Below, piece by piece: positions 41,633 through 47,798 of a stretch of DNA of 64,000 bases. The notes under the pieces were generated by a model. It searched no databases. It was not told the DNA's origin and worked only from the letters and a program-made list of their open reading frames with translations. Position 1 is the first letter of the stretch. Every line of letters begins with the position of its first letter. The position numbers and the translations under genes were made by a program. This DNA comes from an uncultured Methanosarcinaceae archaeon. GTDB lineage: Archaea; Halobacteriota; Methanosarcinia; Methanosarcinales; Methanosarcinaceae. The DNA lies in NCBI GenBank assembly GCA_963847185.1, contig CAWJYV010000010.1:64001-128000 (forward strand). The letters run 5' to 3'.

Positions 41633-41992
41633 TTATTCACTGATCCAAGTCTTTGCTTTATCAAATTCATTATTACTGAAAACTCTCACCTGAACAGGAA
41701 TAATGAATTTAAACACATTGACAGAATCATTTATCCAGTGAACATCAGAAACAACCGCAACCTTCTCGAATGAAAATGTATGCCATGATACCTTTGCATC
41801 TTCTAGGTAAGCATCGAGTGCATAATGCATAAAATCTTTGTTCAATTGATAAAGCATGCGAATCTTCTTGTACCTTTGCAGTTTGTCTTTCATTGCAGGA
41901 ATTAGTACAGTGTCGTAGTCTTCTCCTGTTATCGTTCCACTCCCAATAATACCAAGAACATTGTCTGGCAACCCTTGCATAAGTTCCATCAT
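41633..41992 (-). CDS. SpoIIAA-like (STAS/SEC14) protein
   Basis: LPDNVLGI...GTITGEDY...FEKVAVVSD...AKTWI. Confidence 0.8.
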   Translation of the reverse strand: MMELMQGLPDNVLGIIGSGTITGEDYDTVLIPAMKDKLQRYKKIRMLYQLNKDFMHYALDAYLEDAKVSWHTFSFEKVAVVSDVHWINDSVNVFKFIIPVQVRVFSNNEFDKAKTWISE

Positions 41993-42009
41993 AATATTTC
42001 CCTCCAAAA

Positions 42010-42208
42010 GACACAATGCCAAAATCTAGTGATGAGATTAAAATTAAAAATCACTAGATTTCGAAAATGGTCACAATTCTTTGAATGCTACCTATTAATT
42101 GATGCCGATAAATCTCGAATATTGAGTTTACTTGAAAACTCAATTCATTTTGGAAATTCAATATTTCAATCAGAAAATGCAAAAATCACTAGATTTTGGA
42201 ACTGAGTC
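42010..42208. mobile_element. MITE family D (199 bp, 24-bp TIR, CTCCAAA target duplication)
   Basis: gacacaatgccaaaatctagtgat / atcactagattttggaactgagtc; ctccaaa on both flanks. Confidence 0.75.
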
Positions 42209-42327
42209 CTCCAAAGCTAGAAATTATTCTAATAATATCCACAGGCAAATGAAAGTACTTTTCTCCTTACTTTTTTTGACTGTTGATGTCATCATTACCA
42301 TAGGCAGGAATTTTTTCAATAACACAT

Positions 42328-42520
42328 GTATGAAGCTAAGAAATAAGCGTAGCTTCTTGTAACCCTCTACATACCTAACACGCACATATACCTAGAAGCC
42401 ATGTACAAAGGCCAAGGATATCGCTTGGGATAAGGACAGGTAGTCCGGCTCAGGATAGTGCGGAAACTATTAGTGTGAGAGCCGGATCTTTGCCGAGGCT
42501 TAGAAACGATTATATCCCGA
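42328..42520 (+). ncRNA. Candidate structured sRNA, copy E1
   Basis: Core ctagaagccatgtacaaaggccaaggatatcgc shared with 45792; nested stems tccggctc/gagccgga, atagt/actat, ttgggat/atcccga. Confidence 0.55.
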
Positions 42521-42584
42521 AAACAAGTAAATATTTAAATACAAGTTAAGAAATTTTAGCTTCCCTGCTCATCATTATTCAGAC

Positions 42585-42875
42585 TTAATCTATCATCTGA
42601 TTGATTTTATTGTAAAAATCTATTATCACATTTGTTGCCTCATTTTCCATGTTCAGCTGGAAAGTTCGGAGTTGCTTTCCCAAGAGTTTTTCTCGGACAA
42701 CGCCTGATGCTATCAAAGGGGTGACAACTCTTGATACACTGGCGTGAGACAATCCAGTTTCTTCAGCTATTCCTGAAAGGTAAGTTGGCTCGTTCTGTTT
42801 TTCGATCAAGTTCTTGAGGACTGTCATCTGTGCAGTTTTTCCGAAGATTTTCTCCATTGGATCCATTGATATCAT
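42585..42875 (-). CDS. Small winged-HTH (ArsR-like) transcription regulator
   Basis: YLSGIAEETGLSHASVSRVV HTH. Confidence 0.85.
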   Translation of the reverse strand: MISMDPMEKIFGKTAQMTVLKNLIEKQNEPTYLSGIAEETGLSHASVSRVVTPLIASGVVREKLLGKQLRTFQLNMENEATNVIIDFYNKINQMID

Positions 42876-43146
42876 CTCAGAGGTGGCTATTCTCTATAAG
42901 AGCGTGCCTTAAAATTAAATTTGAATCTATAATTGGGATAGGTCTTATTCATTTGAACTGAAAAAGAATAGCATTAAACAATCAAATGCCTAAAATACAA
43001 ATATAAACCATGATATTACTATGTTTTATAGATGGTATTTTTGCGGCGCTGAAAGAAGCGCCGCTAACTATACCCTGAATAGTTAGTGCATTTTTCGGGT
43101 TGGAAAATTTTCCCTTGAATTTGAAGAAGATATAATTTTTGCGGCT

Positions 43147-43227
43147 TTACCAGCATTGGATGTATCTGAACCATGTCATGGTATAATTCCAGCTACTTAT
43201 ACACAAGTATTCATACAATATATACAT
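43147..43227 (-). CDS. 26-aa small ORF MYILYEYLCISSWNYTMTWFRYIQCW
   Basis: GGAGG RBS 8 nt before ATG; GC hairpin gcggcgct/agcgccgc downstream at about 43043. Confidence 0.35.
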   Translation of the reverse strand: MYILYEYLCISSWNYTMTWFRYIQCW

Positions 43228-43954
43228 TGAAATTTCCTCCACTCTTTTAACGTATTTTGTTCATGCTCATCTTTGTAGATATTTTAAAAGAAGATGGATT
43301 ATTTTGAAGTCGTGTGTACTATTCCTCTTTGTTAAACTCTTAATCAAACCTCCTATTTTGTACTAACTATGGTTATTTTACGGAAATATTTTTAACAATT
43401 ATCTCTCCTGAGTATACTCATTTTCATCTTGAGGTAAATATATCTCAAATTTCGTGGAAAATAAGTATATGTGATTATATAATCTAAAGTTATATAAGTA
43501 AAATAGAATACATTCTCCTTAATAATAATCATTTGATATAATTTTTGGAATTTTTTACTTTATTGTCTCTTATAATGGGTACTTTTAACTAATAGGGAAT
43601 TATTTAATCAATATTAACTTTATTGTGGAAAAAATAGGTCTAATTGATAGTTGATGAAAAAAGAAAAAACGTAATCAGTAATTGATAATTTACGAAAATA
43701 ATTCAGAAACATTTGTCCATTGTATCTTAACTTTATATCGTCAAATTAACTCATTTTTGCAGATATCGCAACCCATTTCCACCTAAAAAACCGGATCTTG
43801 AGTATTAGACCCTTCATAAGAAATAATACATTTTTAATATTTTATGTCTTAACCGAATCCAAATGAGTACATACTATACATACATTTATCGTTATTGGGT
43901 ATTATACACACCTGATAAAGCTAATAAAAGTATATAAAAAATGATGGTGGAAGT

Positions 43955-44830
43955 ATGGAACTCACTTCGATTCAAAAAGATATCATTATTGCGTTAATCA
44001 ACTTGCAGAGGCAAAAAGACAGATCAATTAAGGGGGAAGAAATTGCCGAGGTTATCCAACGCAATCCTGGAACTGTTCGCAATCAGATGCAATTGTTAAA
44101 AGCTCTGGGTTTAGTGGAAGGGGTCCCGGGACCAAAAGGAGGATACAAACCCACAGGAGCTGCGTATGACACTTTGCGCATCCAGCAACTTAACAATGAA
44201 TCAGCGGTTCCAATTTATAAAAATGATCTCGTAGTTAATGGTGCTACAGCTGCCGAAATAAGCTTTACGACAGTAAGAAATCCAGAAGCCTGCAATGGAG
44301 TCATCCGCGTACTAGGAAACACAAAGGACTTTTTGATGGGCGATAAAATTCAGATTGGTCCGACTCCTGTGAATCGCCTGATAATCCGAGGAGAAGTTAT
44401 AGGAAGGGATGATACCAGTAATTCTATTCTCTTCAATATTACCGAAATGATATCTCTCCCTAAAAAACACGTTAAACACTATATGAAATATCCTCCTTTG
44501 CTTGTGAACCTGAATGCCAGTATTCAGGAAGCAACGAGACTTTTTATAAGAAACAATGTTCATGGTGCTCCTGTTGATAACAATGGAAAAATAGTAGGGA
44601 TAGTTACTTACACAGATATCGCCAACGCCATTGCCCAAGGAAAACCGAATGTAAAAGTAAAAGATATCATGACGAAAGAACTTATTACCGTTGATGGGGA
44701 CATGCAACTCTACGACGTAGTAAAGCTCTTCCATAAATATAGTATAGAAAGGCTTATTGTAACAATCAACGGCGTACCTAAAGGAACTCTGTCAAAGACC
44801 GAAGTCCTGAATGAACTTGCAATTTACTGA
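43955..44830 (+). CDS. HTH plus tandem CBS-domain transcription regulator
   Basis: KGEEIAEVIQRNPGTVRNQM...GVPGPKGGY; C-terminal CBS pair. Confidence 0.88.
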   Translation: MELTSIQKDIIIALINLQRQKDRSIKGEEIAEVIQRNPGTVRNQMQLLKALGLVEGVPGPKGGYKPTGAAYDTLRIQQLNNESAVPIYKNDLVVNGATAAEISFTTVRNPEACNGVIRVLGNTKDFLMGDKIQIGPTPVNRLIIRGEVIGRDDTSNSILFNITEMISLPKKHVKHYMKYPPLLVNLNASIQEATRLFIRNNVHGAPVDNNGKIVGIVTYTDIANAIAQGKPNVKVKDIMTKELITVDGDMQLYDVVKLFHKYSIERLIVTINGVPKGTLSKTEVLNELAIY

Positions 44831-44839
44831 GATTAAGAT

Positions 44840-45050
44840 TGTGGTCGCATCTATCATTTAAGGCGTATACCAGTTATATTTCTCAACATAAGCCCATCTA
44901 GAATCTAATCAAAAAAGCCGAAGCTATCGGATAAGGAAAGTTATTAAGGACACCAAGCATGAAGGCCTTGCCTGTCGAAGGACCAGCTGCACATCAGGGA
45001 TGAGCAGATAGAAAAGTCTTAGATGGGAATATGATAAACAGGCGGTCCAT
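44840..45050 (+). ncRNA. Candidate structured sRNA, copy E2
   Basis: Degenerate core ctagaatc...aagccgaagctatcggataagga; stem cccatcta/tagatggg; 5' part homologous to E4. Confidence 0.45.
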
Positions 45051-45076
45051 ATTAAATGTTTTTTCCATAATGGGTA

Positions 45077-45182
45077 ATGGGCATGAGTTATTGAAAAACA
45101 TAAGCATAAGAATCTCTCTGCATTTCCTCAAATTCGGGAGATGTACTCGCTTTTTCGGAATTGATCAATAACTCACGGACAC
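45077..45182 (-). mobile_element. MITE family A
   Basis: Collinear with 23531-23637. Confidence 0.8.
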
Positions 45183-45247
45183 GGACCCCATAATGGTGAT
45201 CCTGAAAAGGATTGTCAGCATCGTGGAGTTAACCTGTTTGAAATCCT

Positions 45248-45646
45248 TCACTTTGAGTGATTGAGAGAGGCTTGTCTGCTCATCACTTTCAGCTTCTTGA
45301 TAGCAGAGATGGTTGCCTGAGATTCTTTGTAAATCTTGTCTTCGTAATAGCTTATGATTTCGTCAACTGGAGCCGCAAGAGAATAAATCTTCATCGGCCG
45401 CCCTTTTCCAGGCTTTTTTTCCGAGCGTACACTGATCCAGGATTGGTTGTGCATTAACCTTATTGCAATACTTACTTCGGGCTGCCTTAATCCGGTGCTG
45501 ATTTCAATTTCACGGGATGAAGCTTCGTCTACATTCATAAGATATGCCATGGTTGTAGCGACATTTCTTGACATGCTGAGATTCCTTAACGTTTCAATAA
45601 AAGTATAGTCTTCTTCATCCAATATTTTTACTTCCAAGTTTTTTAT
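45248..45646 (-). CDS. ArsR/MarR-type winged-HTH regulator (probable ATA start at 45646)
   Basis: SSREIEISTGLRQPEVSIA...GKGRPMKIY; GAGGGG RBS. Confidence 0.85.
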   Translation of the reverse strand: MKNLEVKILDEEDYTFIETLRNLSMSRNVATTMAYLMNVDEASSREIEISTGLRQPEVSIAIRLMHNQSWISVRSEKKPGKGRPMKIYSLAAPVDEIISYYEDKIYKESQATISAIKKLKVMSRQASLNHSK

Positions 45647-45770
45647 GATAACCCCTCGATATTTCTAGTTTTATGGATAATTTGTCAGCTTAAAAGATAC
45701 TTTTATTACTCATTAAAGTTAAGGATACTTTATAAACGTTTTCAAATTATATGCACTTACATGAGATAAC

Positions 45771-45895
45771 CTTGATCCGTACTGTAGCTGACTAGAAGCT
45801 ACGTACAAAGCCAAGGCTATCGCCCGTAGCCAGATGGACAAAATATACCCGGACGGCTCCACAACACAACTAAAACGAATACGAATGGGCCAAGT
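45771..45895 (+). ncRNA. Candidate structured sRNA, copy E3
   Basis: Core ctagaagctacgtacaaagccaaggctatcgc; stems gtac-gtagct/agctac-gtac and gcccgt/atgggc; TTTATAAA at 45729. Confidence 0.55.
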
Positions 45896-45898
45896 TTC

Positions 45899-46300
45899 TT
45901 ACCGTCTGACCTCGATTTCAAAACCGTTCTCTTTTGCAACATTGCTCATAAAATCCAATAATAAAAAACGGTGACAACGTTCTCCACATTCAGGACCTTC
46001 GTGGCTCACAAGAAAAATGTCATTTGATTGTGCTCTTTTGGCTGTTCGAAGGATTGCCACGCTGGGGACATGCGGTTGCATTTCCTCCAAGAATTGAAGT
46101 GTGAATTGCTCCCAGTCATCTTTTGTCCTTTGACTCTTGTTATAGTTGGCAATTAGTTTCTTGCTTGGGACTAAAGAATACTCGCGGTAACTGTATTTGC
46201 ATAACGGTTTGTCACGCATAACAGCAACGAACTCTGCGTTTGGGTGTGATTGTCTTATATTTTCAACATTTGCTGCATAAGTTTGGGATAACATTTTCAC
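45899..46300 (-). CDS. DUF488-family protein
   Basis: LVPSKKL, WEQFTLQFLEEM, LVSHE...CHRFLL pattern. Confidence 0.7.
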   Translation of the reverse strand: MKMLSQTYAANVENIRQSHPNAEFVAVMRDKPLCKYSYREYSLVPSKKLIANYNKSQRTKDDWEQFTLQFLEEMQPHVPSVAILRTAKRAQSNDIFLVSHEGPECGERCHRFLLLDFMSNVAKENGFEIEVRR

Positions 46301-46380
46301 ATCTCTTTTTTGTTTTCAATGTCTTTTTCCTTTATCGTGCCCTAGATATTTGCTTAGTGTATAAGTATAATTCTCTTCGA

Positions 46381-46557
46381 GTATTGAAGCTGACGCAAAT
46401 ACGAGACTAAGTGAATACTTCGTGTCAGCACGTACGGGACTCTCCTAGACGTCCCAGATCTGGAACGTCTATATGCTTAAGGTTCAGGCTTCTGGGATAA
46501 TTGTGGAAGGGTGGTGCAGTAGATCTATCCTGAAGGCGCATACCCCCATACCTAACC
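46381..46557 (+). ncRNA. Candidate structured sRNA, segment E4
   Basis: Stems gctgacgc/gtgtcagc and gggac/gtccc; shares gtat(t)gaagct and catacctaac with E1, and tctatc..aaggcg(c/t)atacc with E2. Confidence 0.45.
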
Positions 46558-46790
46558 AGAAACATTTTCTACAAAGATAGTGTTTGACTTGATAAAGTCT
46601 CCTGTTATTTGTTTCACCATCTCAAATTTAGATGGATAAAATTATACTTCGCGGTATACGTGAAAAAGAAATATGGCAAAGTTAAGATAGTATCTTGTTA
46701 TTTTGTGATTATTAGCAACTCGGGTTATGTACAGTATTTGTTTTTACTAAAAACTGTCTAACACTGGGGCTAAATAGGTAGATTTATACA

Positions 46791-47197
46791 TTATAAATCA
46801 GGAGAATATTCATCTGTTTCTGACACTTCCACATTCTTCATCATATTTTCATTTACTTTATCGCATTGTTCAGCTGCACGGGCTAACCATAGTTTTACAC
46901 TGGCAGATTGTACCCTTAAAACATCAGCAATTGTTTCAATAATCATTCCTTTCATAGACATTCTCAGAGCTAATTCGATAGTGTTCTCATCTTTGCGAAG
47001 ATCATGATAAAAAGTGCCTGTATGGTCGCAAAAGGATTTGCCGCATTGATGGCAAAGATACCTTCTTGTTTTATTCCCACGACTTATGTAAATGCCATTT
47101 CCAGTAACATTGCCCTGATTAGTAAGGCCATAGAGCTTACAGTCTTTCTTAGGACAGGAAACGTCAAAAATTGTGGTTTTGGACCTCTTTTCCCCAG
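46791..47197 (-). pseudogene. IS1-family transposase N-terminal (InsA-like Zn ribbon/HTH) remnant
   Basis: GKRGPKPQF then a frameshift, DVSCPKKDC...RYLCHQCGKSFCDHTGTFYHDLR; no DDE domain seen. Confidence 0.7.
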
Positions 47198-47798
47198 AGA
47201 GATCTATATCTAATGGTTAATATATAATTCCAATCGAATAAAAATTGACCATCTTTATTTTTGATTTTTTTCAATTCCTTTGGTTTTGTAATTATATTAA
47301 ATTTCGATACTGTTTTGATAAATTAATGGTCAATTACTTTTCTTTTATATCTTATCTATATTTATAATGAATCTTGCATTTTTCAGGATAACTATAAAAA
47401 TATATTAATTTATTGATTTGTAGTTCCAGTGCCTTATTTATTTGTGATTATTAATGAGATTTCCTTAATAATGTATTAATGGATAAAGAAAACAGTTCTT
47501 GCCATGTCTGTCCTTATTAAGTTCATATCTTTATTACTACACATATGATGATAATGTGAATCGATGCTGATTCATTCTATATGATACTATTTAAACACGT
47601 TTCTGAAAGTTCCCCGGGGTATAAAGTGGAATGAATTCCAATAAACAGAGAAATCTTTTTACCTTTTTTCGTAAATTAAATATTTTTACAATAATATTAA
47701 TCTCCACCAATATGTTTATATTGTACTTGCAATTAATTTCTAATTAATTATATGAAGTTACATTTGCATTTTCTTTGATTTCTATGGAGGAATTTGAC

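Follow-up and report, generated by a model that had tools for sequence, protein, structure and literature searches.

The BIMEs of Escherichia coli and the BOX elements of Streptococcus pneumoniae are mosaic intergenic repeats, and type I toxin-antitoxin loci occur in the long direct repeats (LDR/QUAD) of E. coli. Among methanogens, the genus Methanosarcina has the largest and most rearranged genomes. Here, we analyzed a repeat family built from two modules, named A and B, in a 64,000-nucleotide (nt) stretch of DNA from an uncultured Methanosarcinaceae archaeon (assembly GCA_963847185.1, contig CAWJYV010000010.1, positions 64,001 to 128,000 of the forward strand), hereafter called the window. 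Four segments of this stretch, E1 to E4, lie between genes for small regulators, one of them MreA-like, and a DUF488 gene. A sequence-only reading had taken them for a family of four structured, locally amplified RNAs in a small RNA (sRNA)-regulator circuit, either akin to sRNA162 of Methanosarcina mazei or forming a new RNA class linked to DUF488.

A survey of prokaryotic satellites describes many satellites in Methanosarcina, most of them with short units, and most of the long-unit ones as protein-coding repeats (PMC6749651). As described in its report, sRNA162 is a 191-nt transcript with three stem-loops (SL1-SL3) and a 39-nt linker, found in two copies in M. mazei and in one copy each in M. 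acetivorans and M. barkeri (PMC3510493). According to the same report, it lies beside an ArsR gene whose start is within the upstream open reading frame (ORF) MM2440, the two forming the bicistron MM2440-41, and it overlaps the 5′ untranslated region (UTR) of the divergent gene on its other side (PMC3510493).

Four segments of the window belong to a modular repeat

Each of E1 to E4 is a unit, in part deleted, of a modular repeat that is non-coding and specific to Methanosarcina. A check of the sequence located the blocks reported earlier: the core CTAGAAGC-N3-GTACAAAG occurs at 42392 and 45792 (0.02 occurrences would be expected in the window, and none of 100 shuffles gave as many as two), with a degenerate copy at 44898, while GTAT(T)GAAGCT is found at 42328 (E1) and 46381 (E4), CATACCTAAC at 42370 (E1) and 46547 (E4), and TCTATC..AAGGCG(C/T)ATACC at 44850 (E2) and 46524 (E4). 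The segments are also, as had been proposed, non-coding, mutually related, and richer in GC (0.45-0.52) than their flanks (0.25-0.33), and all of them are oriented alike, on the + strand of the window. Their parts are as follows.

42328..42520, + strand: E1, a 5′ hairpin module, a linker, the start of module A, and a unique tail
42328-42379: 5′ hairpin module of E1 (GAAGCTA/TAGCTTC)
42392-42428: module A part of E1 (model positions 1-36, nhmmer)
42429-42520: tail of E1, with no other copy in the genome (by BLAST, only E1 positions ~10-123 match elsewhere)
44840..45064, + strand: E2, a B3 remnant, a linker, a variant module A, and a common tail (BLAST, alignment)
44840-44871: remnant of the 3′ end of B3, and linker, in E2
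44898-44945: variant module A of E2, of the 'GAAGCTAATCTAAAAGG' subtype
45778..45898, + strand: E3, the fullest module A in the window (45792-45878), TATA-like box included
45778-45806: hairpin ahead of module A in E3, pairing the 5′ motif of A
46381..46564, + strand: E4, a module A with an internal deletion, then module B (nhmmer, palindrome search, alignments)
46381-46418: deleted module A of E4, followed by part of B1
46446-46471: palindromic hairpin B2 of E4
46490-46530: B3 of E4
46531-46556: linker of E4 ending in CATACCTAAC, followed by the first bases of the next A (46557-46564)

E3 matches positions 1-88 of the module A model (nhmmer, E 3e-20), making it a nearly full A, and at its 3′ end a short, degenerate tail borders the stop codon of DUF488. 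E4 matches positions 38-121 of the module B model (nhmmer, E 5e-17). E2 has eight BLAST matches in its own genome, the best at C3:33420-33579 (82%), and its tail, which is common to four other loci, runs into the 3′ side of MreA-like genes. Within the window, the promoter-like part is kept in E3 only and the hairpin in E4 only; the repeats of the window do not make up a dedicated circuit.

The family extends far beyond the four segments. A BLAST search with E1 gave 41 matches in the window's own genome, and the number of nhmmer matches to the same blocks, 43 for module A (about 89-110 nt, iterated search) and 38 for module B, overturns the count of four. Fifteen of the 38 module B matches cover only the last third of the module (B3). 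Module A holds a highly conserved block, an imperfect palindrome (GGCTA-N7-TAGCC), and a sequence resembling a BRE/TATA box, GGACCAAATATAT; module B holds a leader, a 24-nt palindromic hairpin (B2) centered on CAGATCTG, and a GGGATA...TATCCC block. A full unit consists of module A and then module B (~200 nt), and units stand solo or head to tail. Matches to A and B merge into 41 clusters, which are confined to contigs C1, C3, C4, and C5 and two spots of C10 (five of the ten contigs), the other 2.4 Mb having none. Many clusters are head-to-tail arrays, such as the B-A-B-A-B-A-B array at C1:25762-26453. Orientation is uniform within clusters and switches once in 36 neighboring cluster pairs.

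No conserved ORF is kept on either strand of the 42 repeat copies examined, which are set apart by indels of 1-2 nt. Coding in the forward frames was rejected, as these indels break them, and so was a small protein or type I toxin, the reverse frames that end at a conserved CTA/TTA having no conserved start and being shifted by indels.

Distribution, mosaic arrangement, and proposed origin

A two-unit query matched 28 of the 58 other genomes of the genus Methanosarcina at E ≤ 1e-6; when only high-quality genus genomes are counted, the window's genome included, 19 of 39 are positive. In 12 genomes representing other genera of the order, the repeat was not found. A search with an exact 20-mer across ~185,000 species gave 23 loci; each bears a Methanosarcina or Methanosarcinales title, and these loci again show co-oriented arrays. 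Copy numbers range from one to dozens among genomes, and the distribution is patchy. With 41 clusters on five contigs, and with 28 positive genomes among the 58 others of the genus, the amplification is not a local one, contrary to the sequence-only reading. Plasmid and phage collections contained no match to the repeat. The lone 20-mer match in IMG/VR lies inside an unrelated 1188-amino-acid (aa) ORF with no other similarity and is thus a chance match, and an origin from a virus or plasmid was rejected. Full-text literature searches found no published description of the repeat.

We place the family, with a probability of roughly 0.55, among mosaic DNA repeats like BIMEs and BOX elements, a kind defined as a functional class and not as a homology family, which would have spread by block duplication and recombination in a plastic part of the chromosome. 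It is modular, variable in module order, multi-copy, intergenic, and non-coding, and it has a conserved hairpin unit. Three different contexts are found upstream of CTAGAAGC, with breakpoints exactly at module edges, and a possible block copy relates C1:17147-17453 to C1:25834-26144 (78%). In the proposed mechanism, the repeat would be copied at the DNA level, in blocks, along with the paralogous genes next to it (those for MreA-like regulators and for PAS kinases). Recombination where modules meet would then reshuffle the units, and selection may preserve one hairpin and a few blocks of sequence, which perhaps act as signals for protein binding or for transcript processing.

Compared with the Methanosarcina genome G065, DUF488 is 96.5% identical, its 5′ region 91.8%, and module A (E3 against its ortholog) 87.2%, and identity falls to ~47% just beyond 45792 and 46412. 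Between orthologous loci, too, the breakpoints coincide with edges of modules. The block of module A and DUF488 (45792-46412, against locus L024 of G065) thus has a coding identity of 96.5% compared to ~86% for the adjacent CBS gene against the same genome, a difference which suggests that this block was recently exchanged between species. Block order around the CBS gene also differs between the window's genome and G065.

GC skew gave no usable signal of replication direction; the gene-strand bias flips on C1, but cdc6 is on C7. In the complete genome G055, the clusters between 0.83 and 2.19 Mb are oriented -,+,-,+,-,+, and cdc6 is at 3.02 Mb. This alternation means that there is no replication-linked polarity, and an orientation directed by replication was rejected.

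Pairing and covariation

The earlier description of the segments as structured was not confirmed beyond one hairpin. RNAalifold, run on 16 A+B units, predicted B2 alone (46446-46471 in E4), and in 26 distinct copies from several genomes 87.3% of the B2 cells pair, compared to 75.4 ± 1.5% after shuffling (0 of 500 shuffles reached the observed value). Seven of the ten pairs change on both sides, and slid controls pair at 21-37%, while the center and the outer bases of B2 are constant across copies. As its non-Watson-Crick combinations are G-U in 28 cases and A-C in 22, the strand on which B2 folds cannot be called.

Folds of the single sequences are ordinary. The minimum free energy (MFE) z-scores, given for E1 to E4 in turn, are weak at -1.5, -2.3, -0.9, and +0.2 (+ strand) and -0.5, -0.9, -1.7, and +0.3 (- strand), and RNAalifold gave no consensus fold for module A on either strand (39 copies). 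The GGCTA/TAGCC palindrome of module A pairs in 357 of 522 cells, essentially through a single pair type and with no covariation; module A is conserved as sequence, without pairing. Covariation among homologs, which the sequence-only reading had expected, is found in B2, with no call of the strand, and not in module A. The GGGATA/TATCCC pairing of B3 is invariant, its departures being G-U in 24 cases and A-C in 12. In a hand count of nine copies made without a control, a stem between GCYCGT (module A) and ACGGRY (short tail) is paired in 49 out of 54 cells, mostly via G-U. Two individual structures that had been pointed out did not survive comparison: of the possible pseudoknot of E2, ggacc/ggtcc is unchanged in the closest homolog and gcctgt/acaggc loses two of its six pairs (four informative sequences), and the E4 stem gctgacgc/gtgtcagc is missing at the orthologous locus of G065. 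The stem described for E1 falls within its unique tail.

Rfam scans returned nothing relevant in the window or in 14 related loci. No match reached the gathering threshold of Rfam 15 in the window, the sole match in a scan of 11 related loci was an unrelated HEARO RNA, and scans by E-value stayed at chance level (e.g., RAGATH-25, 19 bits vs 49).

Neighboring genes and elements

The genes and the element that lie between or next to the four segments are the following.

42585..42875, - strand: 96-aa winged-helix gene with weak MarR/Lrs14-like matches, one of seven paralogs in the genome
43955..44830, + strand: 291-aa regulator with an HrcA-type winged helix-turn-helix (wHTH) and two CBS domains, outside the repeat
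45065..45196: true MITE (miniature inverted-repeat transposable element), outside the A/B family and next to E2, with a 114-nt body (45074-45187)
45248..45637, - strand: 129-aa MreA-family regulator, TrmB-like without a sensor domain (NCBIfam NF053756)
45899..46300, - strand: 133-aa DUF488-N3a gene, single-copy in the genome

The CBS regulator is conserved genus-wide: all 59 genomes match a 7.5-kb query holding the gene, which is covered among the matches listed. The 129-aa protein scores 152 bits against a cut-off of 100 for the MreA family (NCBIfam NF053756). MreA, a TrmB-like regulator that has no sensor domain, binds promoter DNA without a recognizable motif, and TrmBL2, one of its relatives, has been described as an architectural protein of the chromosome (PMC3419521). 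The MreA-like gene and both its flanks form a repeated cassette with module A on each border, and 45188-45882 of the window is common to four loci of the genome at 84-100%. Copies of the cassette at C1:38703-39399, C1:96267-96940, and C3:32720-33416 show 84-86% DNA identity. Across most genus genomes the MreA-like gene and ~120 nt upstream of it are 80-88% conserved, often in several copies. Module A adjoins five of the six close paralogs of the 129-aa gene, none of the three distant ones, and about three to four of the seven paralogs of the 96-aa gene. The association with regulators seen in the sequence-only reading is thus partly right, as adjacency, without being the local circuit that it had pictured.

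At least four other genomes also have a module A at the DUF488 3′ end, one lying even next to a diverged paralog, while the DUF488 protein has no match in five complete genus genomes. Being single-copy, DUF488 explains only one of the 41 clusters, so that an RNA class linked to this gene was abandoned even though the neighborhood recurs. More generally, the clusters have ordinary neighbors, such as PAS kinases, transporters, and an aldo-keto reductase. The upstream neighbor faces the same way as the cluster in 19 cases and the opposite way in 21, the downstream neighbor in 23 and 18, and the intergenic gaps around clusters measure 0.1-3 kb (about 1 kb). A gene-linked role as promoter or 3′-UTR was rejected, as the 41 clusters follow no rule of orientation or distance.

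Several other features were noted along the way. At C1:78742-95528, PAS sensor kinase paralogs of 818, 907, and 776 aa form a row on the same strand that includes a 796-aa gene outside the kinase family, and A/B units lie between the successive genes; the three kinases have a common N-terminus, 'MT.FNLPD.DE.EIQ'. A HEARO (IscB-associated) RNA (140 bits) lies at positions 507-711 of locus L046 (genome G037); a partial module A is ~300 nt away from it and an MreA-like gene 1.4 kb away. Just before E1, 41991-42227 holds a 43-nt imperfect inverted repeat (72%) upstream of a SpoIIAA-like gene, and direct repeats of AAAAATCACTAGATTT are found at 42046 and 42181. The stretch 46822-47254 contains broken ORFs on the - strand with no Pfam match and is 83-87% identical to multi-copy DNA in other genomes of the genus (in G031, for instance, at four places); it probably represents a mobile-element fragment. 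At C1:179380-181232 (L051), a tyrosine recombinase gene stands beside an IS200-like element with a 155-aa Y1 transposase and end hairpins of its own; this locus sits in the gap on C1 where the repeat orientation switches.

E1 to E4 and the solo copies show neither terminal inverted repeats nor target duplications at their edges, and the A/B family is consequently not a MITE, as had been concluded earlier for the four segments. The true MITE next to E2 is flanked by a 9-bp direct repeat, CCATAATGG, at 45065-45073 and 45188-45196 (period 123) and has the subterminal inverted repeat GAGTTATTGA/TCAATAACTC. It has at least 48 BLAST copies on all ten contigs, in both orientations, and it is skipped in RNA contigs of relatives, where 45067 is joined to 45191.

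Alternative explanations

Several observations weigh against a mosaic DNA repeat that spreads in blocks. No instance of spread was observed: we found no empty-versus-filled orthologous site with clean edges, and seven of seven relatives lack the element downstream of an MFS gene, but their neighboring genes differ too. Units of the same array have a similarity of 0.693 compared to 0.668 for units elsewhere (permutation, 749 of 5000), the best match is in the same array for two of 15 copies, and Tandem Repeats Finder reported no long-period array at a three-unit locus. Because units within an array are no more similar than others and Tandem Repeats Finder is blind to the arrays, these would be old or copied as blocks, and recent tandem duplication is not supported. 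Conservation is blockwise, with 45 of 89 columns of module A conserved at ≥90% against 17.6 expected and 53 of 117 columns of module B against 9.0 (even spread), in a test that used related copies selected by hidden Markov model and that is biased towards conserved columns. This blockwise conservation and the covariation of the B2 hairpin would fit an RNA gene too, and the same side is favored by the likeness of GGACCAAATATAT to tRNA promoters of the genome, by the excess of G-U over A-C departures in B3, and by an RNA-library contig of a relative that spans the junction from B3 to A.

Each full unit might accordingly be a small transcription unit, with module A as promoter (the BRE/TATA-like box, and upstream of it an operator-like palindrome) and module B giving a hairpin RNA of ~130 nt, the family being one of multi-copy, array-forming non-coding RNA (ncRNA) genes; we hold this reading, under which transcription from E3 would yield an antisense RNA against the DUF488 3′ end, to be tentative and rather unlikely. 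A tRNA promoter such as GAAACCTTTATAT resembles GGACCAAATATAT, and a conserved AATTAAAAC lies ~25 nt downstream of the TATA-like box, where an archaeal start site would be expected. The covarying B2, the G-U departures of B3, the GCYCGT/ACGGRY stem with the limits of its hand count, and the uniform orientation within clusters are also in its favor, as are the RNA contigs of relatives, which cover E2 as well as the B3-to-A junction. These contigs come from one study, with three metatranscriptome runs available as contigs (shares of 0.08, 0.00, and 0.03); they carry no strand or end information, the parts they leave uncovered prove nothing, and at 90-95% likeness to the window they stem from other organisms. 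The supposed promoter is, however, better conserved than the supposed RNA, the strand of B2 cannot be called, the MFE z-scores are weak, and RNAalifold finds B2 alone. There is also no terminator signal, since runs of five or more T occur within 150 nt downstream of 20 of the 41 clusters and runs of five or more A of 21. A bolder proposal makes the A-B unit a miniature gene, in an array-forming ncRNA family that co-expanded with MreA/TrmBL2-like regulators binding module A, the whole being a regulator-RNA network. We consider it unlikely; if the miniature-gene reading were true, there would be dozens of ncRNA genes in the plastic half of the Methanosarcina chromosome.

That module A is conserved without covariation, its palindrome using nearly a single pair type, would suit a protein site better than an RNA helix, and the constant center and outer bases of B2 point the same way. 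The repeats might then be predicted binding-site arrays for sensor-less winged-helix proteins (MreA/TrmBL2-like or the 96-aa HTH protein), serving regulation or local chromosome architecture. The adjacency of module A to close but not to distant MreA-like paralogs would agree with this, as would the binding behavior of MreA and the architectural role described for TrmBL2 (PMC3419521). Yet co-location may reflect co-duplication in the same plastic region, and inner stem positions of B2 covary, which a protein site does not require, so that we find such arrays improbable. Still less credence goes to non-autonomous mobile elements moved as single-stranded hairpins by a Y1 (IS200/RAYT-type) transposase, or to integron-like recombination sites, which we judge very improbable. 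A conserved, covarying hairpin without inverted terminal repeats or target duplication is what such elements might show; the distribution is patchy, with one to dozens of copies, and genes for Y1 transposases (six matches in the genome) and tyrosine recombinases (five matches) are found on the same contigs. However, the intact IS200-like copy has unrelated end hairpins, 18 of 21 B2-like hairpins are inside B modules and none flanks a Y1 gene, and we rejected a REP/RAYT- or IS200/IS605-derived repeat, the same hairpin not being found beside a Y1 gene. An integron cassette array was likewise rejected: neighboring genes face both ways (19/21 and 23/18), the gaps of 0.1-3 kb are about 1 kb, no integrase is adjacent, and the nearest tyrosine recombinase is 2.3 kb from one cluster. 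The lack of replication-linked polarity in G055 and of plasmid or phage matches also speaks against mobility of this kind.

The family is genus-specific, has strongly conserved blocks, and lies amid paralogous sensor kinases and MreA-like regulators; it is thereby a candidate for the substrate of the Methanosarcina rearrangements and possibly a common regulatory or architectural signal. For annotation, it calls for caution, as each conserved intergenic copy should not be called an sRNA gene.

Comparison with known systems

MITEs, like the 114-nt family next to E2, share with the A/B family that they are short, non-coding, multi-copy, and intergenic. The A/B family differs in its uniform orientation within clusters, its head-to-tail arrays, its regional distribution, and its lack of terminal inverted repeats and target duplications, and the neighboring MITE is its opposite throughout.

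As described in their report, sRNA162 and sRNA171 resemble the present family as Methanosarcina intergenic elements beside a small HTH regulator gene, with one duplicated copy beside transposases (PMC3510493). Set against that description of sRNA162, the A/B family has 43 or more copies and mosaic units compared to one or two defined transcripts per genome. It also lacks an ArsR-type bicistron, its regulator being MreA/TrmB-like, and the 129-aa gene has no overlapping upstream ORF, unlike the sRNA162 locus. With dozens of copies and no bicistron, the kinship with sRNA162 that had been suggested is unsupported on the published description.

LDR/QUAD repeats are likewise intergenic, a few hundred nt long, and sometimes tandem. 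The A/B family differs from them in that neither strand keeps a conserved small ORF; among the 42 copies examined, many have reverse frames that are broken off or shifted.

BIMEs and BOX elements have no sequence relation to this archaeal family, which belongs to one genus, has larger units (~200 nt), all direct rather than alternating, and occupies one chromosome region; most of its conserved sequence is unpaired, and no RAYT-type partner was found. What it has in common with them are short non-coding modules in variable order and number, tens of intergenic copies that encode no protein and differ by the modules present, tandem repetition of modules, and a hairpin unit.

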